In this document: positions 967 to 61,620 of the stretch, piece after piece
Position numbering within the stretch: the first letter of the stretch is position 1
How the letters are laid out: the number at the start of each line of letters is the position of its first letter
Source of the DNA: a virus
Reading direction: 5' to 3' (one strand)
DNA: 64,000 nucleotides
Virus record (IMG/VR): IMGVR_UViG_3300045988_140118
Position numbers and translations under genes: made by a program
Notes under the pieces: model-generated
Database searches by the model: none
Told to the model about the DNA's origin: nothing
What the model saw: the letters and a program-made list of their open reading frames with translations, nothing else

Positions 967-1425
967 ATGGGGATGTGGGAATTTCTGCATCCCCTATTTT
1001 TATTTATGGATAGTATAAGAAAACTTATTAGGATTTATACGCCTTTTATCGTTACCCTTTGTAATTTGACATACGGTGTATTATTTCTGAAGGAAACATT
1101 AACCGATAACGAAGCATTTACTTTGAATGTTATTTCCGGTTGTTCTTTCAGCTTTGTGATATACGTTTGGGCTGCAAGTAAGCACATGTGTATATGGTAC
1201 AAACTGAATCTACTGAGCATGGTTTTGATGTTGGTGGATACAGTCTTATATTATGTAACTGATGTAATAGACCGAGTGTTATACAGCTACATTTATGTGT
1301 TATTAGCGACAGCAGGATTGATTTGCTTTCTAGCATTTTGGTTTACGTTCGTACTTTTTAGAAACGTGGTGTGTAATCGCAAACATTCAAAAGTACAAGA
1401 AGAACGCCAAGACCTAGTTCCTTGA
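967..1425 (+). CDS. hypothetical multi-pass membrane protein
   Basis: 152 aa with about 4 hydrophobic segments. The 3' end overlaps the convergent LuxR-type gene by 68 nt. Confidence 0.5.
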   Translation: MGMWEFLHPLFLFMDSIRKLIRIYTPFIVTLCNLTYGVLFLKETLTDNEAFTLNVISGCSFSFVIYVWAASKHMCIWYKLNLLSMVLMLVDTVLYYVTDVIDRVLYSYIYVLLATAGLICFLAFWFTFVLFRNVVCNRKHSKVQEERQDLVP

Positions 1426-1666
1426 TTGCTTGTAACGAGAATTTCTTTCCCTTCGTATGCGCAATGTATGCCGGGATTATTTCTGAGTTCTTGGATAATC
1501 CGTTATTAGCACGAATGTGTCTTGTATGGTTGTTTACTGTGAAACGGGAGATATGCAGCTTGTCAGCGATTTCCTTTTCTGAGAAACCTCTTGATATGTA
1601 ATCGGCTACCTCCAATTCTCTTGTACTAAAGATTGGTGTCTTTGCGTCATTGTATATCTTATCCAT
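1358..1666 (-). CDS. LuxR/GerE-type helix-turn-helix transcriptional regulator
   Basis: STRELEVADYISRGFSEKEIADKLHISRFTVNNHTRHIRANNGL matches the LuxR C-terminal HTH pattern (LTxRExEV..G.S.KEIA..L.IS..TV..H..I). Confidence 0.8.
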   Translation of the reverse strand: MDKIYNDAKTPIFSTRELEVADYISRGFSEKEIADKLHISRFTVNNHTRHIRANNGLSKNSEIIPAYIAHTKGKKFSLQAIKELGLGVLLVLLNVCDYTPRF

Positions 1667-1750: not shown

Positions 1751-2071
1751 ATGAAATACGAAGAATTGTTCGTTGAGATTCTGACCGTTGTGTCGGATGT
1801 TACCAGTTTAAGTGTAGTAGACATACTCACTTCCAACCGTGAAGAATGTGTAGATGCCAGACACATCTTAATATACACATTAAGCGTTAGAGGTTTCTCT
1901 GACTGCAAAATTGCGGAGTTAATGAAAATTACAAGACCTGCTGTTTGTATGGCACGTAATAGTTTCAAGTACAGAAGAAAGCGGTATTTCGTTAACCTTC
2001 ATTATCAAGAAGTTTACTCCCTAATTTTTGTCAGTAAAGAACCTGTTAACGATACGGTAAAGAAGCAGTAA
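1751..2071 (+). CDS. small HTH DNA-binding protein (DnaA domain IV-like / sigma region-4-like)
   Basis: SNREECVDARHILIYTLSVRGFSDCKIAELMKITRPAV resembles the DnaA C-terminal HTH pattern. Assignment is weak. Confidence 0.4.
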   Translation: MKYEELFVEILTVVSDVTSLSVVDILTSNREECVDARHILIYTLSVRGFSDCKIAELMKITRPAVCMARNSFKYRRKRYFVNLHYQEVYSLIFVSKEPVNDTVKKQ

Positions 2072-6219: not shown

Positions 6220-6492
6220 ATGAATGAACAAGGTAAACTAGCAACAGATGTTGCTAACAATACAGTACAATGTTTAATGTTGGGAGAAGCAGTAAATGTA
6301 ACATCTGCTAATGTAACAGCCTATTTGCCTGTTATTCGGGTTTACGCTGAGGAAGCTACTAATTTGAAACTTTCCTCACAAGCGGGTGATGGAGTAGTGA
6401 TTCCCAAAGGAGGCGTAGAGTATTTTGGTGTGCGGTCGGGAGTTACCATAGTGGTAAACGGTAAAGCTAATATAATGGGTGTTAGGTTATGA
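6220..6492 (+). CDS. hypothetical protein
   Basis: 90 aa. Overlaps the next gene by 4 nt (ATGA). Confidence 0.55.
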   Translation: MNEQGKLATDVANNTVQCLMLGEAVNVTSANVTAYLPVIRVYAEEATNLKLSSQAGDGVVIPKGGVEYFGVRSGVTIVVNGKANIMGVRL

Positions 6493-7481
6493 TGAATCCA
6501 CAATTAGGGAGGTTGGGATCAGTCTCCCCATCGTTACTAAATGGTGGTTCTGCGAAACCTATTTTTCGTGGAGACTTAGTAGACTTCTTCACCTTTAAAG
6601 GGAAGGGTAATATGGACCTTGACCGTAATACAATAACCGGACTCCTAGAGAATAAATTAACAGCCTACAATTTTGGATGGAGTTTAATGTCAGGGTATGG
6701 GGGGTATAATGAAAATTATCTGACTTATTCTAAAGCTGCTAATGTATTCGTAACGGATGATCATTCTATTACGATAATGAACTTTGTTCCGGCCAATACT
6801 TGGATACTTTTCAAATATGGAACTGAGCATTTAAATACTACAAGAATAAGAGTGACAGGACTTACAGCCAATAACCAACTTGCTTATGGGTATTCACCTA
6901 CTAATGATGGAGCAAGAGTCTTAATGGCAATTCCCTCAGATGGAGAATATGATTTACCTAAGAGTGTAGTTAATACTCAAACTTATAATGTTGGTTTCAT
7001 TGTACAGAACGCCTTATCTCAAAATGTAACTATACAGCAAATTCCAGAATATGAAGGGGCAATAGTTACGGATGGCGTTAACGATTATCTGAAACTTGAT
7101 AAGGTAGGATATAAGATAGGAACTGTTATAATTAAATATGTCCCTATTTCAATACATGCAGGATGGAATGTAGTATTTGATACCTATAATGATGTTTATG
7201 AAAATAAATGCTTAATGTTCTACAATAGAATTGTTAGCAATTGGGGTTCTACTATGAACAGAAAAATTATAAATGATTATTCTGCATTTGTTAGCAACAC
7301 TCCTAAAAATGTAGATGTGCCTTTATATCTTGCAGCAAGGTATGAAAATACAGTTAAAGATTATCTTAATATGGCTCTATATGATATTGCTATTTACAGC
7401 ACTGCTCTGTCTGAGGAGGATGTTCAGAAAGAAATATCCGAAGCTTTTCCTAAATACGAACAATTAATTTTAAACAGGTGA
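6489..7481 (+). CDS. hypothetical protein with C-terminal LamG/concanavalin-like signature
   Basis: The C-terminal LYLAARYENTVKDYLNMALYDIAIYSTALSEEDVQKEI resembles the end of LamG-type lectin domains. Confidence 0.4.
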   Translation: MMNPQLGRLGSVSPSLLNGGSAKPIFRGDLVDFFTFKGKGNMDLDRNTITGLLENKLTAYNFGWSLMSGYGGYNENYLTYSKAANVFVTDDHSITIMNFVPANTWILFKYGTEHLNTTRIRVTGLTANNQLAYGYSPTNDGARVLMAIPSDGEYDLPKSVVNTQTYNVGFIVQNALSQNVTIQQIPEYEGAIVTDGVNDYLKLDKVGYKIGTVIIKYVPISIHAGWNVVFDTYNDVYENKCLMFYNRIVSNWGSTMNRKIINDYSAFVSNTPKNVDVPLYLAARYENTVKDYLNMALYDIAIYSTALSEEDVQKEISEAFPKYEQLILNR

Positions 7482-7780
7482 TTATGGATTTTTTTCTAAA
7501 GGAACCTTTATCTGTATACCAAAACGGAAATATGTACTCTATCCGGACGCAGACTAAAGGGGTAGAACAGTTAGGTCAAGTATTGTTTTTTGATGTGACT
7601 AAATCGGTGGCTATTTCCTTTGCAAAAGATTTTTGCTTAGAAAATACTTCCATGTTTCAGGTAAATAGAGTTATCAGTGATAAGGAAGTTTCATTAAGAG
7701 ACGTTCTTAAAGTAATTGCTGAGACTACTCTTTCTGACAATAAAAAACAAGAATTATTTTTAAAACTAAACTCTTTGTAA
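7478..7780 (+). CDS. hypothetical protein
   Basis: 100 aa with a 4-nt overlap to the upstream gene. Confidence 0.55.
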   Translation: MIMDFFLKEPLSVYQNGNMYSIRTQTKGVEQLGQVLFFDVTKSVAISFAKDFCLENTSMFQVNRVISDKEVSLRDVLKVIAETTLSDNKKQELFLKLNSL

Positions 7781-12876: not shown

Positions 12877-13200
12877 ATTAGAAGCTAATTAGCGTAATTA
12901 CGTAGTAAATTAGCCGTGTAACTAATTAAATTACGCATGCAGAATTAAAATTAGCGTAGTTTTATTTTAGTTATTCTTTCTACTTTCTTATATAACTAAC
13001 TTAGCGATTAAAAATAAACTGGAAATTACGTGCGGAAATTAATTTCTACTTTAATTCTTATCTTATACTCCTATTATATACTAGAAACTAAATTAATTTG
13101 CGGCGAATATTTTAATTTCTAGTTCTAATTTTATCTATGTCTTATGATATAGGTATACATAGAATAAAATAGCGTGCGAAATTAAATCTACTTTGCTAAG
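12877..13200. repeat. AT-rich iteron-like repeat cluster
   Basis: Many AATTA(G/C)CG-type words lie between 12877 and 12960. Three spaced copies of a GCG(G)AA(A)TTAA(T)TTCTAC-like core sit at 13032-13049, 13100-13122 and 13172-13191. Confidence 0.7.
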
Positions 13201-13543
13201 CGTAGCGATTCTTTCTAATAGAAATTAAATAAGCCCAATTAAAAACGGCAAATAAACTAATTACTTTTAGTAAACCATATACTAAGTAGAGATACTTACT
13301 ATTACCTACTAAGTAACCGATGGATTTATTCAAAGAAACATCGAAGGAAAGATAACTTTAAATTTTTTGCGGCAATTTCTTATTCCTTATTCCCAGAAAG
13401 ATCTACCCGTAGATACATAGAGTGATTGGACGTGAGCTGACTGAGCTGAACCAAGAGAGGGGTACCCTTAAATGGACTTAGCAGGGCGGTTAGGTTCGGG
13501 TAGTACGCTTAGGTCACAGAGTGGAAAAGACGACCTGTATTTT

Positions 13544-13629
13544 TGTGACTGCATGTGTGATAGACAGTGTGTGGTGTGTAGTGTGTGTCTGAGAAATGTA
13601 GTGTGGTGGTGTGTGACTGCGTGTGTGAT
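13544..13629. repeat. GT-rich block bounded by an 18-nt direct repeat
   Basis: TGTGACTGCATGTGTGAT (13544-13561) and TGTGACTGCGTGTGTGAT (13612-13629) flank (GT)n-rich sequence. TGAGCTGA occurs twice at 13433-13449 just upstream. Confidence 0.9.
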
Positions 13630-13777
13630 CGAACGAAAAAGGACGCTACACGGTACGACTATCTAATGTGTATACCTATACAGTTACTTTGCATGTGATA
13701 ACTGTTAATTGATCTAAAAATAACAATGCCTTTTGAATAAAACTTTCTTTTCAGTTTGTTATCTAACATAAAATTAC

Positions 13778-13785
13778 TATCTTTG
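13778..13785 (+). promoter_or_regulatory. -7 box TATCTTTG with -33 TTTG at 13755-13758
   Basis: TAnnTTTG 42 nt upstream of the ATG at 13828. 19-nt spacing to TTTG. Confidence 0.6.
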
Positions 13786-13827
13786 TGTATAAAAGTTAAT
13801 CACCTAACAACATTAAAAGACAAGGTT

Positions 13828-14073
13828 ATGAAAGCAATTACAGAAAAAGAGACACTAAACAATAGGTTTTGTAAAACAGATAAAAAGACAAACAAAGTTA
13901 CTTTAACTAAAGTGAGTCGCAAACAAGCTGAAAAAATGGATATACGTACTTTATGTTTGTACATAGCTTCAGAGAGCCTAAGATTTAGAAGTGTTGCTAA
14001 AGCTACTGAAAATGCGAATCGGTGGTTAGCAGAAGGAGATAAAGAAAAAATAGTAAGTTTGTTTTTTGAATAA
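13828..14073 (+). CDS. hypothetical protein
   Basis: First ATG in track ORF 13756-14073. Sits downstream of the promoter box. Confidence 0.5.
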   Translation: MKAITEKETLNNRFCKTDKKTNKVTLTKVSRKQAEKMDIRTLCLYIASESLRFRSVAKATENANRWLAEGDKEKIVSLFFE

Positions 14074-14105
14074 TTAGAATATAGACCTTTTAAAAATATA
14101 CAATT

Positions 14106-14405
14106 ATGAAAACAGTTATTTCAAAATTAGACAAGAAGACATATTATCTGGCAGTTGCTACTAACTGCGAGTACAGTGAGTTTATTGAAGGAGAAAGATA
14201 CCAAGTGAGAAGCGCAACGAAAGAAGATTGCCCGGACTTTGAAGATTACTGTGTAGTAAATGGTACTTTCTGGGAAACACTTCCTGAGATAGACTTTCTT
14301 CGTATAAGCGGAAGACCCATGATCAACCGATACAATGGCACTTACTTTCTTCACAGACTGGTATTGAAGAGTGATTGCAAAAAGTATCTGTCTTATCTTA
14401 ACTAA
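14106..14405 (+). CDS. hypothetical protein
   Basis: 99 aa ATG ORF. Confidence 0.5.
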   Translation: MKTVISKLDKKTYYLAVATNCEYSEFIEGERYQVRSATKEDCPDFEDYCVVNGTFWETLPEIDFLRISGRPMINRYNGTYFLHRLVLKSDCKKYLSYLN

Positions 14406-50136: not shown

Positions 50137-50295
50137 ATGGCTAAAAGTATGTACCCTTCTTTTCCTTGGAACGCAAAAACCAAGGAAACATCTCTCCTTG
50201 AAAAAAGAGTTGAGGAACTTTCCAAGAGTCTTGAACTGCTTGAAAAAACTGTGCAAGAACTCAATATTGAACTGAAGAAACTAAAACAGAAGTAA
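50137..50295 (+). CDS. small coiled-coil protein
   Basis: 52 aa from the first ATG. LLEKRVEELSKSLELLEKTVQELNIELKKLKQK is heptad-like. Confidence 0.5.
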   Translation: MAKSMYPSFPWNAKTKETSLLEKRVEELSKSLELLEKTVQELNIELKKLKQK

Positions 50296-50296
50296 T

Positions 50297-51349
50297 ATGT
50301 CACACGCTAACGGAATAATTACTGCTCCGGTAAGTATTGAGGACGTAAAACTGACGATTGGCTGTTCCAGTGATAGCTTAGGCACTCTTTGCGCAAAAGC
50401 AAAGAAAGGTGGAAAGAGTGGTTATGCGTTCAACATTGTAGAAAACGGAGGTACCGTAAACAGTGGAGAACTTCTTGCTGATTCTTACCCCTACTGGAAT
50501 ATATATTCCAATGAAAGTCCAGGAGAATGGTTGGCTGCTGCAAGTGCTGACGGACCTCTTATTATGGAGTTAAAACGTTTTCTAGGAGATAGGAATAAAG
50601 GATATGGTTTCGGCCTTCATCATTTTGATGGGTATAATCATAACGCTGCTGCTCCTTTCCCCGGAGGACAACCTCTTGAATTTACGGAAGGTGCCGGAAG
50701 TGGGTCTGTTACTTACACAGTAACCTTAAAACCCAACACGGGTAGTTATAACTGGGCTAAAATTTCCGGAGCTACTTTATTTCAGTCCAGAGTCTATAAT
50801 GGAAGTATTTTAATTGCTCAAAGTACACCTGTAGCTATCAGTTCCGGGACAGTCACTATTTCTGTGCCTCTGACAATTAATACAGCTAGTGTTGGAGTAT
50901 TCAGATATAAGACACGTTTGTACATCGGTAGCGGATCTGTTAACGACTTTAATTCACTAGGCTATATTCCGGTTGAAGGGGAAATAACAGTCACTATTAC
51001 GGCTAAACCTGTTATAACTGCGAGTGTTAGAGTTAGTGGTAGAGTTAATGTATTTGCGATGGCTGAAGGAGTTACTTCTAACAATACTACCCGGTTTAGC
51101 GGTACGTACAGATTAAATTCAGGTGTTACTACAGATGGTAAGACTCTCAGAAGTATGACCTATAGTTGGGGATCTGCTGCTGCCGGCAATGAAGGTTCTC
51201 TGACTGTTACCTCGTTTAATTTCAGGGAAGGACCTTCTTATCTTAGAAGTTATTCTGCCGGAGACAATGTGGAAACCTTTACATCCGATCCTGCTAGAGT
51301 TCCTAGGGACTTTATAAATTCTTATCAAGTATTATTTGTTTATGAATAA
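50297..51349 (+). CDS. paralog L1 of unrecognised ANGxITAP family (putative receptor-binding/tail accessory protein)
   Basis: MSHANGIITAPVSIEDVKLTIGCSSDSLGTLC ... HHFDGYNHNAAAPF shared with L2 and L3. C-terminal two thirds are unique. Confidence 0.7.
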   Translation: MSHANGIITAPVSIEDVKLTIGCSSDSLGTLCAKAKKGGKSGYAFNIVENGGTVNSGELLADSYPYWNIYSNESPGEWLAAASADGPLIMELKRFLGDRNKGYGFGLHHFDGYNHNAAAPFPGGQPLEFTEGAGSGSVTYTVTLKPNTGSYNWAKISGATLFQSRVYNGSILIAQSTPVAISSGTVTISVPLTINTASVGVFRYKTRLYIGSGSVNDFNSLGYIPVEGEITVTITAKPVITASVRVSGRVNVFAMAEGVTSNNTTRFSGTYRLNSGVTTDGKTLRSMTYSWGSAAAGNEGSLTVTSFNFREGPSYLRSYSAGDNVETFTSDPARVPRDFINSYQVLFVYE

Positions 51350-51352
51350 CTT

Positions 51353-51559
51353 ATGAAAAATTTATTTAAACTTTACAGAGAATGGAGGGATAGGAAATTT
51401 GTCGAACGCATCAACAGAGTCTATTTTAAGAAAGATGAAAAGTCTAATCTGTACTTAGAAGGTTCATTACATGTTTCGAAAGATATAATTGTTTATGATG
51501 GTATTGCTACCAATATAGACAGTATGAAAGAGTATGTATCTAAAAACCAAAGACAATGA
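51353..51559 (+). CDS. small protein carrying one copy of the fibre-repeat motif
   Basis: YFKKDEKSNLYLEGSLHVSKD aligns with WFKKDEDGNIYAEVNFYSTQG of fibre 1. Confidence 0.5.
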   Translation: MKNLFKLYREWRDRKFVERINRVYFKKDEKSNLYLEGSLHVSKDIIVYDGIATNIDSMKEYVSKNQRQ

Positions 51560-51777
51560 AAAAAGCAACTTTAGTAATTAAGGGAGATTTGATCTCTCTT
51601 GGACGTATTGCTCCTGCAAGGGAGGGGGGGGGCAACCTTGTTTGTAATGTCTCCGAGAAAACTCTAGAGAGTATAGACATATCAACTGCAACCGTTATAG
51701 AGGGAACTATCCAAGTGGATAATTTTCTTTATAACGGTTTTGTTGTGGTAACAGGTCAAACATGGGCTAAAAAATAG
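51556..51777 (+). CDS. paralog S1 (small beta-rich protein) containing a G9 tract
   Basis: MKKATLVIKGDL...EGGGNL...STATVIEGT...GFVVVTG is homologous to S2. The G9 tract encodes GGG. Confidence 0.6.
   Translation: MKKATLVIKGDLISLGRIAPAREGGGNLVCNVSEKTLESIDISTATVIEGTIQVDNFLYNGFVVVTGQTWAKK
51624..51632 (+). repeat. G9 homopolymer inside S1
   Basis: Nine consecutive G counted, in the context GAG GGG GGG GGC. Gain or loss of one G gives a stop within 8-9 codons. Confidence 0.95.
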
Positions 51778-51785
51778 GAGGTCGT

Positions 51786-52934
51786 ATGCCACATAGTAAT
51801 GGAAAAATTACGGCTCCTATTTCTATAGATGATGTAAAGTATACGATCGGAACTTCTTCAGATGACCTTGGTACTCTCTGTATCAGCGACGCTGTTAATT
51901 CCCATGCGAAGTATAAACCTGTCAGACTTGACAGCCTTCTAGGAAGTTTGGAGTCTGGGTATTTTCAAATCGAAGATACCCGAACGAGTGTACCTTATAG
52001 TACGGATTGGTGGAGAAGTAAAAACGGTTATGCCGGATTCCAGATGGACCAGGTAAATAATGTGGGAAACCCCAATCTTCCTGATCCGGTATGGACGTAT
52101 CTGAAACCTGACACTTATTACAGACTTCACGATTTTGAAGGTTACAATCACAACGCACCCAAAGACCTGTTTACGGTAGGAGTCCCTGAAAAAGTAGCTC
52201 TTAATAAAGGGTTCAGGATGACCGTCCATATTCCCCAATCAAGAGACGGTGCTTTATGCCTTCCGGATATTTTTAATAAGGGCGCTTTTGACAGCGATTA
52301 TATCCGGTTTGTGGTTAATCTTAGAAGCCCTAGTAATCCTAATGCAACGTATGTAGAGCGTGAGCTTCCCGTCACTACCGAGAATAATGTTATCCAGTGG
52401 ACCGATGATGAAGTTCGTTTGGGAGGTACGGTAGGTGGTAAGCTTTGGTGCCATGTTTACATGAAAAACCATTTGGGGAGGTATGTAAGTCTGAGAAATA
52501 CAGAAGCTACCAAAACCATATTTGAGATGCAGTACGTTTCCAGCGATCCGTTCCTGTTACAGATTCGCTGTCAGGCTGTCCTACGTTATCTGGTAAGCAA
52601 ACCTTATCAATTAAAGGTTATGAATCTCACCCCTATCATCAATGCCATGAACTACGCAGGGGGAACTTTGCCGGCTACTACCATTGCCATGTATAGGTAT
52701 TATACGGACAGTACGGATTATGTTAGAGAGCTTGAATTGTGGAAAAAAGATTTCCCTGAAACTACTGTTGCTGCCGGAGATCACTACACAATGCCGGGCA
52801 TACCTTTTGAATTTGAAGTAGACACGTATGGATGGGATTCCTATGTAGGAGAAAAAGTCATCTTTATTTGGTGGCAATACCAGATACAAGAACTTGCAAG
52901 ATTAGTCGTAACTATTAACCGCATGAATAGCTAG
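51786..52934 (+). CDS. paralog L2 of ANGxITAP family
   Basis: MPHSNGKITAPISIDDVKYTIGTSSDDLGTLC ... HDFEGYNHNAPKD. AGGAGG 6 nt upstream of the ATG. Confidence 0.7.
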   Translation: MPHSNGKITAPISIDDVKYTIGTSSDDLGTLCISDAVNSHAKYKPVRLDSLLGSLESGYFQIEDTRTSVPYSTDWWRSKNGYAGFQMDQVNNVGNPNLPDPVWTYLKPDTYYRLHDFEGYNHNAPKDLFTVGVPEKVALNKGFRMTVHIPQSRDGALCLPDIFNKGAFDSDYIRFVVNLRSPSNPNATYVERELPVTTENNVIQWTDDEVRLGGTVGGKLWCHVYMKNHLGRYVSLRNTEATKTIFEMQYVSSDPFLLQIRCQAVLRYLVSKPYQLKVMNLTPIINAMNYAGGTLPATTIAMYRYYTDSTDYVRELELWKKDFPETTVAAGDHYTMPGIPFEFEVDTYGWDSYVGEKVIFIWWQYQIQELARLVVTINRMNS

Positions 52935-52935
52935 T

Positions 52936-53169
52936 ATGAAAAAAGTAGATTTATTGATTAAAGGCAATTTATTTGCTGACAAAGTGGAGGGGGGGGGCGA
53001 GCTTTCCCTAGACGTAACAACACTGGCTGACCCCAGTAAGTATGACCTGACAAATGCCACAATCATAGAAGGAGACCTGGATATAGTCTCTTTAACGGGT
53101 TGTGGCATTGTTGTATGCACAGGTGCAGTAACAAGTAGAAAGAAAGGAGGTTGCGATGGCTTACGCTAA
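52936..53169 (+). CDS. paralog S2 containing a G9 tract
   Basis: MKKVDLLIKGNL...EGGGEL...TNATIIEGD...GIVVCTG. The 3' end overlaps the L3 start by 14 nt. Confidence 0.6.
   Translation: MKKVDLLIKGNLFADKVEGGGELSLDVTTLADPSKYDLTNATIIEGDLDIVSLTGCGIVVCTGAVTSRKKGGCDGLR
52989..52997 (+). repeat. G9 homopolymer inside S2
   Basis: Nine consecutive G counted, in the same GAG GGG GGG GGC context as S1. Gain or loss of one G gives a stop within 5-11 codons. Confidence 0.95.
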
Positions 53170-54244
53170 TGGTAAGATAACAGCTCCTATCGCTGCTTCT
53201 GACCCGTATTATGTTTTGGGTGTTGCAGCTCCTAGTTCCGGTTGGGATGTCGGTTATATTTGCGGAGCTGCCGTAAAAGATAAGATCAATGTACTTAGTA
53301 GGAAAAAACCTGTGAAGTACCCGCAACTGTTTACAGATGACTATCCTGAATGGTATAAAGCCGCTAATGGTAATTTTGGAATTGTTTTGCCGGAATCCGG
53401 AAGTAGTTCTGCACTTCCCTCTGCCGGACAACCTATGGCAAGATGGGGGTTTGATTATCCTACTGGTGGAAATTCAGAACCTTATAGACTTACTGATTAT
53501 ATAGGATATAACCACAACGCACCCACTATTTTTAGCATGCACCCTGACCCGGCAGTTTATCCGAGTGCACAATTTAGGTGTTCTATTCTATTAAAACAGA
53601 ACGCTGAGATTTCTTTGAATGAAATAAACTTTATCAGAACTGCTTATATCGGTTGTATTGTCCGGCACCAGGCAAACGGAGAACTTCGATTCAGGACTTT
53701 GAATAAATCCGTGATGGAGATGATGGCGCAAGAATACATAGTTACCCTTGATATTCCTGCATGGCCTGATGGTAAGGTGGATGTCTATATGGTCGCTTCT
53801 ATGGCTGAAGCATCTGAACAGTCGTATGTGGGAGTCAATACCACGATTTTTTCACTGAACCAGAGTCATCTTGAAACAGCACATGAAATTAGGACTCTTG
53901 CCAAACCTGAACCGAACAGCTTTAAATTCGAGTACAAGGTCGTTAATGAATTTGCGAATGAATATCATTTGGAATGTACATTTACGTCTATTAAAGGTGC
54001 ATGGGAGAAAGCCCGATTCTCAGTTATGCTTGAATCAGATCCAGTCGGTGCTTTCCTTGGCGGTATGGGTGAGTCTTTATCTCCTGCTCCGATCGGAGAA
54101 ATGCTGTCACAGGGAGAGTCGTATACATTCAACTCTCAGTCATTTACTCGTGTGCAGACTTCACAGAATAACTATGTGAATTATACGGCTAGATACTTAG
54201 GAGATAATTATCAAGCAGGTTCTATTTTGTTTAGAGCTAAATAA
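53156..54244 (+). CDS. paralog L3 of ANGxITAP family
   Basis: MAYANGKITAPIAASDPYYVLG ... TDYIGYNHNAPTIF. AGGAGG upstream of the ATG. Confidence 0.7.
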   Translation: MAYANGKITAPIAASDPYYVLGVAAPSSGWDVGYICGAAVKDKINVLSRKKPVKYPQLFTDDYPEWYKAANGNFGIVLPESGSSSALPSAGQPMARWGFDYPTGGNSEPYRLTDYIGYNHNAPTIFSMHPDPAVYPSAQFRCSILLKQNAEISLNEINFIRTAYIGCIVRHQANGELRFRTLNKSVMEMMAQEYIVTLDIPAWPDGKVDVYMVASMAEASEQSYVGVNTTIFSLNQSHLETAHEIRTLAKPEPNSFKFEYKVVNEFANEYHLECTFTSIKGAWEKARFSVMLESDPVGAFLGGMGESLSPAPIGEMLSQGESYTFNSQSFTRVQTSQNNYVNYTARYLGDNYQAGSILFRAK

Positions 54245-54270
54245 CTTTTGCATTTTTCCTAAAAATAGTC

Positions 54271-54278
54271 TATCTTAG
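54271..54278 (+). promoter_or_regulatory. -7-like box TATCTTAG (one mismatch) with -33 TTTG at 54247-54250
   Basis: 20-nt spacing to TTTG. 39 nt upstream of the ATG at 54318. Confidence 0.4.
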
Positions 54279-54317
54279 CACCGTGAGAATTAATTGTTTA
54301 ATTTAAAAATCGTATTT

Positions 54318-54674
54318 ATGGCAGCTATTAGTGTAACTGTAGACAATGGTGATTTGGTAAATGTAACTAGAAAGGATGCTACCGTTGTTAGCGAGAACCT
54401 GAACTTGGTAGGTACCGAGTTGGTTATTACTACAGGAAAAGTTCTTTCTTTTAAAGGAAACGTACATAGTAAAGCTTCCAAAACTGTTATTGGAACTTTC
54501 GAGTACAATAACAATGCCGGAAGTTCCGGAGCTATGATTCCTGCTTCTAGCTATGAATCGGTAGTTCGGATTACAAATGAATCCTACGCGGATAAACAGG
54601 TTGAAGCTACTGAAGCTTTGTTGCTTGGGATTGCTAAGTTTTCCGAGCTCCCTACGAATACTTTGTGTGAATAA
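54318..54674 (+). CDS. paralog S3 (longer, no G tract)
   Basis: DATVVSENLNLVGTELVITTG aligns with NATIIEGDLDIVSLTGCGIVVCTG of S2. First ATG of track ORF 54294-54674. Confidence 0.55.
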   Translation: MAAISVTVDNGDLVNVTRKDATVVSENLNLVGTELVITTGKVLSFKGNVHSKASKTVIGTFEYNNNAGSSGAMIPASSYESVVRITNESYADKQVEATEALLLGIAKFSELPTNTLCE

Positions 54675-54692
54675 CCTTTTAAAAAATTGATT

Positions 54693-55199
54693 ATGTCTGG
54701 AAAGAAAACTGCGCCCGCAGAAAACGAAGAAGTAACTGAAAAGAAAAATGTTGCTTTGGTTATTGATATGGCCAAAGGTGATATTCAGAAATTGTCCAGT
54801 GTATTAAAGACAATCCACTACGGAAAAATGTCCTTTAACGGAAAAATGGCTCTTGTAAAGAATGGTCTTACGATCATACAAAAGTCTAAAGAATTGGAAG
54901 AGGAACGAAAACTCGCTTATGACGGATTTATCCCGGAAGAATATAAAAAACTGGAGGAGAAACAAACCAATGGTGAAGATCTTACTCCGGAGGAAAGCGA
55001 CAGATTCTCCAAAATGAACCAGCAATACGGCATTAAACTTAACGAGATGTTTGCTGCACTTAATGCCGAACAGGTTCCGATGAAGATTATCCCTCTTTCA
55101 ATGGCCGACTATAAAATATTGATGGAGGCTAATGAAAGCGCCATCAATGGGGAAGGATTCGTGTACATTTACCAATATCTAACCGAACAGGAGGACTAA
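54693..55199 (+). CDS. hypothetical protein
   Basis: First ATG of track ORF 54687-55199. 168 aa, acidic and helical. Confidence 0.55.
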   Translation: MSGKKTAPAENEEVTEKKNVALVIDMAKGDIQKLSSVLKTIHYGKMSFNGKMALVKNGLTIIQKSKELEEERKLAYDGFIPEEYKKLEEKQTNGEDLTPEESDRFSKMNQQYGIKLNEMFAALNAEQVPMKIIPLSMADYKILMEANESAINGEGFVYIYQYLTEQED

Positions 55200-58974: not shown

Positions 58975-61620
58975 ATGTTTAATAACTTGTTAAAAAATAG
59001 CTGTATGGAAGTAGGCAGTAATTTAATATTAACTGAACGAGAGATAACAAAATATTTTAAGAGTTCGGTACAAGATATTCAGGATATGCTTTCATTACCG
59101 AATCCGGAATACCAAAATATTATGCGGTTTGGGAAAGGGAAGTTCTACAAGAATGTTCCCTCCCACATTTGCTATTTACGCACGGAAGGTATTCTGATTC
59201 CTCGTTACGTCTTACCTCGTTATTTTTTCGGGGAACTTGGTTCTGACCTAACTTACGAGAGTTATGTAAACGTAGGACGTTCTTTGGAGTCAGACCATAC
59301 CATTTCGTTACGTGGTTATCAAAAAGACTTCTTTAAAGCCAATAGTTCCACGATTGATTCCAGTACTGGACTTCTTCTGGAAGCTCCTTGCGGACATGGG
59401 AAATGCCACGGTAAAGGTACTCGTATTCTTATGTACGATGGCACCGTTAAAAATGTCGAGGATATTAAGGTCGGTGATTTACTTATGGGAGATGACAGTA
59501 CCCCCAGACGTGTATTGTCTCTTGCCAGAGGAAGAGAAGAAATGTTTGAAGTAATTCAGAAGAAAGGAATAACGTATACCGTGAATAAGTCCCATATTCT
59601 GTCCTTAAGGTATCGTCCTTGGAGTGGTAGAAGTAAAAAAGCTACTTCCTACGAAAGAGATCACTACGATCAGGTATTCGATCTTCCCCTTACTGAATAC
59701 TTGGACTACGCTCCTTCAAAAAAGTCTGGGTATTATGGCTATTGTGTTCCCGTTGACTATCCCGAAAGAAACCTTAAATTCGATCCCTACTTACTTGGAT
59801 GTTGGTTAGGTGATGGTACGAGTAAAGAACTGTCCTTTACCTGTTCGAAAAATGATAGGACTTTGGTGCATTATTACGCTGAGGTAGCCGCTTTCTATAA
59901 TTTACAACTTAACCGAATAAAACAAATTAATTCTGATGGTACTAGAAATAATTCGAATTTATACAGACTTAAAAGTTCAGTTAGGGTAAAAGGTCATTGG
60001 AAAAATACTCTTTGGGATCTGTTTAAAGAATACGGACTGAAGGATAATAAACACATCCCTGATGACTTTTTGGTTAACTCCAGAGAAAACAGATTAAAAC
60101 TTCTTGCCGGTATTCTGGATACTGACGGTCATTTAAGACAGGGTATTTTTGATCTTGTGCAGAAACGCAAAAATCTTATTTTGCAGATACGTTCATTGTG
60201 TTGGTCATTAGGTTTCAGAGCACGGTTAACCGAAAAAATTTTAGGAGGACAATCTTATTGGCGATTGAGTATTTCTGGAAACATTCACGAGATTCCTACT
60301 AAACTACCCAGAAAAAAAGCTCCGGTTCGTACAATTAACAAAGATCCTTTTGTTAACGGTATTTCCGTAAAATCTATAGGGGAAGGGGATTATTATGGTT
60401 TTATGATTGATGGAAATCATAGATACTGCCTCGAAGATGGAACAGTTACCCATAATACGGTCATGGGCATTTGGTTAGCCTACCTGCGCTATGTACAAAC
60501 TCTTGTTTTAGTACCTACGTATTATTTAGCCCGCCAGTGGAAAGAGCGCATAGAACAAGTTTCTACCGCCAGCGTTTATATTGTTACTTCGAAGGATTCC
60601 GCCATTCCCATAGACAGTGATTTTACGATTGCCGTAATGGATTTGTTTTCAGTGCGGACACTTCCTGAGTCATTCGTAAAGAACGTCGGCCATGTTATTC
60701 TTGACGAGGCTCACAGGATCGGTGCCGAGACGTATATGCCTATTCTGGATCAAATACCTGCCCGTTATCGAACGGCTCTCACAGCTACCTTTAGACGCAG
60801 TGACGGAGTACATAAAATTTTGAAATACCATTTCGGGGAACATATTCAAATGGAAAATCGCTTTCCGAAACCCAGAGTTTTTTCTATGCCTACCGGAGTT
60901 ACCGTTGAAATGTGCCTTAGTAAAAACAAAAAATACCAGCACTTCATCGAGTTCTTAGACTCCAATGATCTGGACTATACTGAAACTCAGAAAACAATCG
61001 CTTTTCCTAAAGACGTTCCCTATGAAGAGATTGCTGCCCGCCAGTTAAAAGTGGGTTCCCTGACAAAAACAGCCTATGCCGAGATTTGTTCCTGTTTACG
61101 AAGAGGCAAAGAATTGTCTTATTCAGTCGTTGAGTCGTATTTGAATGAAAGTTCTTCCAGACGTAAGCGTGTCATCTCGTTAATACAACGCTGTTTGGAT
61201 GCCGGACGTACCGTACTGTTCCTATCTAAGCGCAAAGATATACTGCACGTTCTGTACAAGCACTTTGCTAAATACCGTCCTATGCTGATTGTCTCCGGAA
61301 CAGATGATTTATCCGCAGAGGAATCAAAGTATTTGCAAGAGGCTTGCCCACTTATTTTGGGAGTTACCCAACTTGCTAAAGAGGGTTTAGATGTTGACCG
61401 ACTGGATACCCTTGTTGTGTATCTTCCTTTGAAAGACCTTGAACAAGCTTTGGGGCGTATTTCCCGGTTACATCCGAAAAAGAAAGACCCTATCGCTTTT
61501 TATATGCTTGATAACTGTGCCCTAACTTGGGCAACGTTTATGAACGCTAAACGGATGATGAAGAAGTATGCCGATTATGTCGATTCCAGGACTTTACAAA
61601 CAATAAACACGATTTTATAA
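58975..61620 (+). CDS. SF2 (DEAH, ResIII-like) helicase interrupted by an intein
   Basis: Extein motifs: LRGYQ, split Walker A APCGHGK|T, DEAH (VILDEAHRIG), TATFRR and QALGRISR. The intein occupies 59404-60456. Confidence 0.85.
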   Translation: MFNNLLKNSCMEVGSNLILTEREITKYFKSSVQDIQDMLSLPNPEYQNIMRFGKGKFYKNVPSHICYLRTEGILIPRYVLPRYFFGELGSDLTYESYVNVGRSLESDHTISLRGYQKDFFKANSSTIDSSTGLLLEAPCGHGKCHGKGTRILMYDGTVKNVEDIKVGDLLMGDDSTPRRVLSLARGREEMFEVIQKKGITYTVNKSHILSLRYRPWSGRSKKATSYERDHYDQVFDLPLTEYLDYAPSKKSGYYGYCVPVDYPERNLKFDPYLLGCWLGDGTSKELSFTCSKNDRTLVHYYAEVAAFYNLQLNRIKQINSDGTRNNSNLYRLKSSVRVKGHWKNTLWDLFKEYGLKDNKHIPDDFLVNSRENRLKLLAGILDTDGHLRQGIFDLVQKRKNLILQIRSLCWSLGFRARLTEKILGGQSYWRLSISGNIHEIPTKLPRKKAPVRTINKDPFVNGISVKSIGEGDYYGFMIDGNHRYCLEDGTVTHNTVMGIWLAYLRYVQTLVLVPTYYLARQWKERIEQVSTASVYIVTSKDSAIPIDSDFTIAVMDLFSVRTLPESFVKNVGHVILDEAHRIGAETYMPILDQIPARYRTALTATFRRSDGVHKILKYHFGEHIQMENRFPKPRVFSMPTGVTVEMCLSKNKKYQHFIEFLDSNDLDYTETQKTIAFPKDVPYEEIAARQLKVGSLTKTAYAEICSCLRRGKELSYSVVESYLNESSSRRKRVISLIQRCLDAGRTVLFLSKRKDILHVLYKHFAKYRPMLIVSGTDDLSAEESKYLQEACPLILGVTQLAKEGLDVDRLDTLVVYLPLKDLEQALGRISRLHPKKKDPIAFYMLDNCALTWATFMNAKRMMKKYADYVDSRTLQTINTIL
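59404..60456 (+). mobile_element. intein with LAGLIDADG homing endonuclease, inserted in the helicase P-loop
   Basis: Starts with Cys (CHGKGTRILMYDGT, Hint block A) directly after GHGK and ends VTHN followed by Thr. Two LAGLIDADG motifs (LLGCWLGDGT, LLAGILDTDGH). 351 codons, in frame. Confidence 0.85.

Follow-up and report, generated by a model that had tools for sequence, protein, structure and literature searches.

Candidate exchangeable adhesin genes and poly-G-bearing accessory genes form a shared cassette beside the tail fibers of gut Bacteroidales phages

We examined a 64,000-nucleotide (nt) stretch of DNA, here called the window, from the IMG/VR virus record IMGVR_UViG_3300045988_140118. 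The window is part of an approximately 92-kb uncultured gut Bacteroidales phage of the myovirus type that encodes a tail sheath. An earlier note, made from the sequence alone, had described an array beside the tail fiber genes in which three large genes (L1 to L3) were each followed by a small gene (S), and it had read the array as interchangeable receptor-binding proteins (RBPs) with dedicated partners. All three L open reading frames (ORFs) are present (Table 1), and the first ∼125 residues of their products are homologous by pairwise BLASTP (L1/L2, 3e-14; L2/L3, 1e-13; L1/L3, 7e-9). The motifs of this N-terminal domain (N-domain) occur as they had been quoted, with MxHxNGxITAP at the start, SSDxLGTLC in L1 and L2, and GYNHNA[AP] in all three, and beyond GYNHNA there is no detectable similarity. 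A hidden Markov model (HMM) scan of the window found exactly three L genes, two S genes, one member of a further family that we call U, and no member of a family that we call T. Identical matches for the L and S proteins of the window were entries named "Myoviridae sp. ctByu2," all labeled hypothetical, and both families lie outside Pfam, PHROGs, NCBIfam, and the PDB; the note had recognized neither.

Table 1. Features of the L array and its immediate surroundings in the window
Feature	Coordinates	Strand	Remarks
Giant tail fiber, 1649 aa	42704..47653	+	42-54% identity to "peptidase" fiber proteins of crAss-like cr112_1, cr106_1
Second tail fiber, 796 aa	47642..50032	-	Converges on first fiber; fiber homology at C terminus
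52-aa coiled-coil-like small ORF	50137..50295	+	Abuts L1; called as gene in all related assemblies
L1, 350 aa	50297..51349	+	N-domain HMM E=1e-36; first in array, no S upstream
68-aa ORF between L1 and S1	51353..51559	+	4-nt overlap with S1 start; kept in all related assemblies
S1, 73 aa	51556..51777	+	S2 paralog; immediately 5' of L2
G9 homopolymer in S1	51624..51632	+	E-G-G-G spelled GAG GGG GGG GGC
L2, 382 aa	51786..52934	+	79% identity to cr106_1 gp008 and cr112_1 gp035
S2, 77 aa	52936..53169	+	Stop codon 11 nt inside L3 (14-nt overlap)
G9 homopolymer in S2	52989..52997	+	Conserved GGG motif codons
L3, 362 aa	53156..54244	+	86% identity to cr106_1 gp010
Orphan 118-aa ORF (the earlier note's third S)	54318..54674	+	Occupies T-family position; TTG start at 54294 also possible
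U-family protein, 170 aa, predicted helical, acidic	54687..55199	+	U HMM E=1e-44; closes cassette

Searching the L N-domain profile against 1.84 billion representatives recovered 3,996 cluster representatives at E ≤ 1e-3, of which 2,131 also pass E ≤ 1e-10. The domain nearly always begins at residue 1 of proteins of 340 to 430 residues in total, with the consensus MxxSNGIITAPVSIxDVxxxLGxxSxDLGTLCxSxxINxWAKYKP ... PxGGxxxPYRLxDFxGYNHNA. In 100 diverse members, the N-domain matched no Pfam or PHROGs family, and NCBIfam and PDB sequence searches with L were empty. The family is almost confined to viruses: cellular genomes gave three loci, one of them a Muribaculaceae prophage, and the GenBank phages that carry L are two crAss-like metagenome-assembled genomes, four Parabacteroides distasonis phages, one Bacteroides uniformis phage, and one unannotated fragment. 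L1 to L3 are thus members of a family that is very large but has no name, and whose proteins probably bind the host. A reading of the N-domain as a Cys-His enzyme (C32 with H122 of GYNHNA) was tried and rejected; H122 is often R, S, D, N, or Q, C32 is not universal, and Y120 alone is invariant.

An AlphaFold2 (AF2) model of L2, built from the family alignment, showed a confident N-domain, with a predicted local distance difference test score (pLDDT) of >90 at residues 1 to 50 and 80 to 160, followed by two beta-sandwiches that resemble immunoglobulin (Ig) or fibronectin type III (FN3) domains. Foldseek searches with this model returned only generic tandem Ig/FN3 folds from the PDB and, from BFVD, uncharacterized relatives and FN3/Ig tail proteins. 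This structural comparison, of a kind that the earlier note had proposed, gave a domain type and no match to a characterized RBP or anchor. A full-length L profile produced a marginal CBM3-like match on the distal sandwich (E = 0.0076). Foldseek also listed transglutaminases (TMq of ∼0.2 over ∼270 alignment columns), matches that probably reflect tandem Ig-like barrels and not a catalytic core.

The S genes are arranged differently from what had been described. L and S do occur together in other genomes, but the "large then small" pairing was not borne out: across 63 loci, S lies almost always immediately 5' of L (one exception, locus L034 in our numbering), and it can lack an upstream L. The S-like gene P0312 is an exception to this placement. 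S and L are separated by a gap of 4 to 9 nt or overlap by 11 or 14 nt, and the 14-nt overlap, which puts the S stop codon in L codons 4 to 5, recurs in unrelated loci. The first L gene after the fiber gene has no S, nor do single L genes next to the fiber, and one L type is S-less when first in its array and S-preceded otherwise. The unit is S followed by L, with S tracking position, which contradicts a role for S as the dedicated chaperone of the upstream L.

The family of small paralogs has two members in the window and not three. S1 and S2 are related (BLASTP E = 6e-11, 38% identity), but the ORF that had been taken for a third copy gave no BLASTP alignment to either, an E value of 0.54 with the S HMM, and a 7% hhalign probability against the S profile. 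We also tried this orphan ORF as a member of the T family and rejected it (hhalign probability, 4%); it has a homolog of its own in locus L009 (66% identity). The S family comprises ∼160 clusters, all hypothetical. The AF2 model of S1 (pLDDT 92.8) contains ten short strands, which suggests a mini beta-solenoid, and neither fold nor sequence searches with S1 gave a significant PDB match. A further candidate, S as a free-standing fiber segment, was prompted by the resemblance of VVxTGxVxAK to ATGGVTAKS of the fiber and was dropped when the S HMM scored the fiber at E = 1.6. One S member runs on into a GDTMTG fiber motif, in a different context.

The conserved Gly-Gly-Gly motif of nearly every S gene is a run of 9 to 11 G residues (G9 to G11). 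Only three G/C runs of ≥7 occur in the whole 64 kb, and the S1 and S2 tracts account for two of them; the L1 to L3 coding sequences hold none of that length. In 676 kb of loci, we counted 46 runs of G ≥ 9, against 0.7 expected, and 41 of them lie in S genes, which make up ∼1% of the sequence. Codon preference runs the other way: GGG is the rarest glycine codon of the phage (8%), and ten glycine runs of 3 to 7 residues in the fiber genes are encoded without a homopolymer. The tract is kept at synonymous positions across S subfamilies that are only 26 to 48% identical, and the only subfamily without it is the 92-aa type of loci L035 to L037. Related S proteins also vary in glycine number.

The tracts differ in length between otherwise matching phages. 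We gathered 20 independent assemblies of the window cassette by exact-protein look-ups. S1 is intact in 14 of them (G9 or in-frame G6) and broken in 6 (G10, G8, or G7); S2 is intact in 13 (G9 or G6), and in the other 7 it is broken (G8). Among the 20, each of the four combinations of intact (ON) and broken (OFF) S1 and S2 is found, and L2 and L3 stay intact throughout. The window and L050 differ from L053 by a single G in the S2 tract, with 0 mismatches over 3.9 kb, and OFF states occur on long contigs of 51 to 89 kb. Scans of public collections for tract variants gave one match in JGI metagenomes and two to three in IMG/VR. Other S types vary as well: G10 is intact in L024 and L029, G9 is broken in cr112_1 and L043, and G11 is broken in L025. 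In cr112_1, a G10 run that close relatives keep whole has lost one G, and the S gene is thereby broken. The S tracts bear the sequence signature of a putative slipped-strand contingency locus. The "multi-specificity" system that the earlier note had envisaged would be recast by these ON and OFF states in otherwise identical cassettes as a stochastically switched one.

Some further observations concern annotation and other tracts. In cr112_1 (L001, NC_055881.1), GenBank misses the frameshifted S gene (G9) at 12975-13207, between gp035 and gp034, and gp034 (13140-14351) is probably annotated 18 codons too early, since the family N terminus MSLSNGIITAP starts at 13194. Two crAss-like contigs have a variable noncoding G tract after the last L gene, ∼40 nt 5' of an 85-aa gene (G9 against G10, at L041:7453 and L043:8844). 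The only other long G/C run of the window is a C10 homopolymer at 1722-1731, inside an 84-nt gap between two divergent small helix-turn-helix-like genes (1358-1666, minus strand; 1751-2071, plus strand). It lies 20 nt 5' of the ATG of the latter and might act on a promoter or leader as another site of phase variation.

The L genes have been exchanged between unrelated phages. L2 and L3 are 79 to 86% identical to crAss-like L proteins, whereas the flanking U protein is only ∼30% identical to crAss-like U and the fibers are 42 to 54% identical. In these ortholog pairs, identity is 58 to 68% over the first 30 to 60 residues and rises to 93 to 100% at the distal end; residues 301 to 362 of L3 are 100% identical to cr106_1 gp010, with only 60% identity over residues 1 to 30. 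At its C terminus, L1 matches that of cr106_1 gp012 with 88% identity over the last 58 residues; gp012 has an N terminus that is not of the L type and is preceded by a small ORF of its own. At the DNA level, a block of homology spans positions 51895-53188, from about codon 37 of L2 through S2 to the first 11 codons of L3, and is colinear with four crAss-like loci that have a different next L body. The different next L body places the breakpoints within the conserved 5' portions of the L genes. These 5' ends have only short microhomology in common. The array order also differs, with the L3 type preceding the L2 type in cr106_1 and the reverse in the window. L genes have been transferred recently between this phage and unrelated crAss-like phages, as would be expected of receptor-binding modules that phages of one host share. 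Because the paralogs within the window are only 30 to 40% identical in their N-domains, the array grew by accretion of cassettes and not by recent duplication.

Beside the exchanged tip of L1, we noted that in cr106_1 (L002, NC_055871.1) at 6252-7752, upstream of the L genes, an 81-aa ORF overlaps by 11 nt the gene for a protein of a 421- to 475-aa crAss-like type. This protein type combines a non-L N terminus with the tip shared with L1, and a small ORF leading a fiber-accessory gene may be a general theme.

We mapped 33 loci and found a recurring gene order of a giant tail protein (1,100 to 1,780 aa), one to three L genes, T, and U, sometimes in the order U-L-T. T is a ∼95-aa protein found in 19 of the 33 loci, and U, a helical, acidic protein of ∼150 to 170 aa, accompanies L in 27 and is placed once per cassette, at its end. 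Copy number of L, a comparison that the earlier note had called for, is one in 20 architectures, two in 10, and three in 3, so the window has the maximum. The carriers are crAss-like podoviruses (cr106_1, cr112_1), siphovirus-like Parabacteroides phages, a Muribaculaceae prophage, and the myovirus of the window. Fold and sequence searches with T and U gave nothing significant, and neither U nor S1 nor S2 matched tail fiber assembly chaperones (Tfa/Caudo_TAP, gp38, gp57A) in Pfam, PHROGs, NCBIfam, or the PDB. Peptidase_S74, an intramolecular chaperone of tail fibers and spikes, was matched in Pfam by 2 of 6 giant proteins tested. PhiCrAss001, from the genus of cr112_1, lacks L, S, T, and U all together, which indicates that the four travel as a functional set; its gp22 fiber carries further unresolved fiber proteins (PMC10172136).

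The L/S cassette also sits in other genome backbones, and several loci depart from this scheme. L009 (IMGVR_UViG_3300045988_107942) has L1-S1-L2-S2-L3 and a 204-aa U, followed by opposite-strand antirepressor-like genes that replace the baseplate genes. In L058, a 2,378-aa fiber containing Shufflon_N stands in the place of L1, and its C terminus has no similarity to L1. The giant fibers of L006, L043, L044, L056, and others likewise match Shufflon_N of Pfam, which represents the constant part of shufflon PilV-type proteins. Most giant fibers also have in common a segment corresponding to residues 1190 to 1420 or so of the window fiber.

The giant fiber of the window contains three tandem repeats of ∼110 aa (…WFKKDxxGNIY…NFYSxxGxSAKG-polyGly-MDEELLW…), in which MDEELLW falls at residues 145, 253, and 369 and a poly-Gly linker in mixed codons comes before each. 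It also has the fiber motif YVKKAGDTMTG, and its C terminus resembles an intramolecular chaperone (…TGGVTAKSTSDIRLK…), with the chaperone-like start STSDIRLK present. Pfam gave nothing for this fiber at E ≤ 1e-3, though homologous fibers elsewhere match Peptidase_S74. A correspondence between three fiber repeats and three L genes was tried and rejected, as crAss-like fibers have one MDExLLW repeat but two L genes. The C-terminal ∼250 aa of the second fiber are 41% identical to the first and 39 to 42% identical to crAss-like fibers. The 52-aa ORF has no family match. The 68-aa ORF lies outside the S family by the S HMM; its YFKKDEKSNLY recalls WFKKDEDGNIY of the fiber repeat, and it was the best match to the fiber repeat HMM among 2,662 small ORFs (E = 0.004), over only 11 residues.

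The L array sits directly 3' of the two large fiber genes and between hub-side and wedge-side baseplate genes. The genes 5' of the fibers encode the sheath protein, a CIS_tube-domain protein, and a weakly GPD-hub-like protein; those 3' of the array encode a weakly gp25-like protein and a J/gp6-like baseplate wedge protein. The "canonical baseplate operon" setting given by the earlier note is broadly correct. A promoter and terminator scan gave no signal above background. Away from the array, an 881-aa ResIII/DEAD helicase (58975-61620) is split by an intein, with Hom_end_hint at E = 8e-20 and a LAGLIDADG_3 homing-endonuclease domain.

Taken together, we propose that the L proteins are fiber-docked, exchangeable adhesins whose accessory copies are gated by poly-G phase variation, a reading that we regard as about evenly poised between right and wrong. 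The conserved N-terminal ∼125 aa would most likely dock the protein to the fiber apparatus of the virion, and the two variable C-terminal beta-sandwiches would most likely bind the host surface. L genes would be swapped as cassettes between unrelated phages of shared hosts, with breakpoints at or close to the conserved 5' end. The L that stands first behind the fiber (L1) would be constitutive, and each extra L would be preceded by, and tightly coupled to, an S gene for a beta-solenoid-like protein of ∼75 aa. Strand slippage that adds or removes one G would turn S off and on, with the S1 and S2 tracts switching independently, and S protein might mount or fold the next L, or translation of L might be coupled to that of S, so that S would be needed to make or mount the downstream L. 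A phage population would then be a mixture of four genotypes whose particles presumably show L1 alone, L1 and L2, L1 and L3, or all three, and such mixed particles would serve as bet-hedging, through their host range, against hosts that phase-vary their own surfaces. The wider claim, that a host-recognition cassette is portable across all three Bacteroidales phage tail types and into crAss-like phages, with each accessory L gated by its own poly-G switch in S and one genotype continuously giving rise to a combinatorial particle mix, is in our view somewhat less likely than not. Of the original proposal of exchangeable RBPs with a conserved anchor, the parts that rest on position, fold, exchange, tip sharing, and a copy number of one to three were supported indirectly, and the membership of the third S and the role of S as dedicated partner of the upstream L were not.

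A number of observations weigh against this proposal. We found no similarity of L to a characterized RBP, anchor domain, or chaperone, and the giant fibers, which are mosaics of common modules, have no universal conserved segment at which the L N-domain could dock. Among close relatives, L has no hypervariable patch; substitutions are evenly spread. A lone S-L pair in L035 to L037 (92 and 336 aa) ends a replication-type operon far from the tail genes. S is broken in the deposited complete genomes of cr112_1 and cr106_1 (gp011) and is hence possibly dispensable. A Shine-Dalgarno-like GGAGG lies directly 5' of both L2 and L3, so that an OFF state of S need not silence L, which counts against simple S-L translational coupling. 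Covariation of S with L gave rho = 0.33 for the downstream gene and rho = 0.42 for the upstream one, in pairs that are not independent. Tract lengths come from assemblies and not from reads, so homopolymer errors are possible, and one OFF contig has 2.7× coverage. We found no published virion analysis for the cultured carriers (Parabacteroides PD691/PD482 phages and Bacteroides phage C3_41T2LP). By analogy with tentaclins and Hoc, whose anchors are C-terminal, the docking polarity of L could also be reversed.

This last point leads to an alternative that we consider unlikely, in which L proteins are decoration or adhesion proteins of the Hoc/tentaclin type for mucus, gut glycans, or nonessential first contact and not determinants of which host is infected, with an N-domain that may bind ligand and a C-terminal anchor. 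Tentaclins are proposed gut phage adhesins of 313 to 649 aa in which Ig-like domains come after a globular N-terminal one (PMC10743442), an organization that L and Hoc-like proteins resemble. The N-domain has many conserved polar residues (D16, D27, N38, K44, R113, D116, and Y120), and conservation of L across phages with very different fibers would be simple if that domain bound a common ligand. However, the polarity of conservation is the opposite one: tentaclins combine a variable DUF6273/C-type lectin N-domain, the target of a diversity-generating retroelement, with a conserved C-terminal Ig anchor, whereas L has a conserved N-domain and a variable C terminus. DUF6273 had no match at E ≤ 1 in L1 to L3, nor did it or a C-type lectin at E ≤ 1e-3 in 100 L members, and a conserved C-terminal Ig anchor was not encountered, the C-terminal parts being unalignable between paralogs. 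C termini that are nearly identical between a myovirus and crAss-like podoviruses with divergent fibers are hard to reconcile with a C-terminal anchor. The constant place of L directly after the fiber gene in three morphotypes also speaks against decoration, as does the L1 tip, which occurs on a protein with a different N terminus in the classic pattern of a receptor-binding tip.

Two other accounts are less probable still. The poly-G length differences might stem from errors that sequencing or assembly makes in homopolymers, or from small genes decaying neutrally once unneeded, and the source of the tract lengths, the low-coverage OFF contig, the broken S genes of complete genomes, and the ribosome-binding-like sequences of L2 and L3 all fit such a view. 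We nevertheless find it quite improbable, given that the homopolymer persists across divergent S subfamilies despite the rarity of GGG, that nearly all long G runs of the loci lie in S genes, that in-frame G6 as well as +1 and -1 variants occur and OFF states are found on long contigs, and that intact S is well conserved and folds confidently. L, S, T, and U might instead be nonvirion intracellular or assembly factors, or a moron-like module (for example, for superinfection exclusion), that stands beside the fibers only for coregulation. The S-L pair of L035 to L037 at the end of an early/replication operon would suit this idea; its neighbors are Tad2-like/Sequestin, SocA_Panacea, and antirepressor genes, of anti-defense type, in phages with an SPP1-type portal. 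U, helical and acidic, has the size and usual position of a tail fiber assembly protein, and L has no structural homology to known tail proteins. This explanation is in our judgment just as improbable, as Ig-like sandwich proteins of 350 to 430 aa with exchanged distal ends are unlike chaperones, L is nearly absent from cellular genomes, and tandem divergent copies suggest diversification of specificity and not housekeeping assembly.

The proposal of switched, fiber-docked adhesins has parallels in known systems. Branched multi-RBP systems with conserved N-terminal anchors include CBA120 TSP1-4 of the Ackermannviridae, gp63.1/gp66 of G7C, and LtfA/LtfB of the T5-like phage DT57C. The L array is like these in its adjacent genes for RBPs (putative ones here), conserved N-terminal attachment part, divergent distal part, and recombination at the conserved part. 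It is unlike them in that the L anchor is not known to have sequence or fold similarity to theirs and the distal parts are small Ig-like sandwiches and not beta-helical depolymerases or fibers; moreover, L is probably not trimeric-fiber-like, and its extra copies bring a small, putatively switchable gene. A fiber chaperone would be expected as one gene directly 3' of each fiber or RBP gene, whereas S is upstream of L and missing from the first L and from the single L next to the fiber.

According to secondary accounts, Campylobacter (Fletchervirus) phages have hypermutable poly-G tracts that lead to phase-variable RBP expression (Sorensen et al. 2021, Cell Rep 35:109214, cited in PMC10579305 and PMC10877375). 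So far as those accounts describe that system, both have G tracts in the coding sequence of a host-recognition module, one-base changes that toggle the frame, and hosts that phase-vary their surface. The present tract, unlike theirs as described there, is housed in an ORF of its own, ∼75 aa long and 5' of the putative adhesin gene, which itself has none. Each genome bears two tracts that are independent of one another, and the proteins belong to families unrelated to those of the Campylobacter phages. Bacteroidales serve as hosts, crAss-like phages are among the carriers, and the phenotype is a predicted one. Sharing of fiber and accessory genes by different morphotypes of one host has been described for the Alteromonas phages A5, V22, and P24 (PMC10579305), and shared host-recognition modules are known in Crassvirales of Bacteroides cellulosilyticus (PMC10028833). 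The L cassette is similar in that fiber and accessory genes are common to podo-, myo-, and siphoviruses, or to different families, whose genomes are otherwise unrelated. It differs in its contents, which are L, S, T, and U where those modules have a fiber and a chaperone, and in that single L genes move alone inside the module.

The L family (∼4,000 cluster representatives), S, T, and U lie outside every library searched, yet in many phages of gut Bacteroidales they stand at the host-recognition position, and these phages include the crAss-like ones, which are the most abundant viruses of the human gut (PMC10172136). Cultured Parabacteroides phages (PD691P4 and relatives) have an L-S-L-T-U cassette with a G10 tract; in PD691P4 it reads L362-S88-L370-T-U, with the G10 at L003:10228. 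Small genes that seem "broken" in phage assemblies should not be dismissed as errors. Should the L proteins be exchangeable adhesins, host range could be predicted from metagenomes with their help. Should the poly-G tracts act as true switches, there would be phase variation within the gut virome, with a bearing on how phages persist with hosts that phase-vary their capsules. Such a cassette switch would be the phage-side counterpart to host capsule phase variation and a possible contributor to the long-term coexistence of phages and hosts in the gut.

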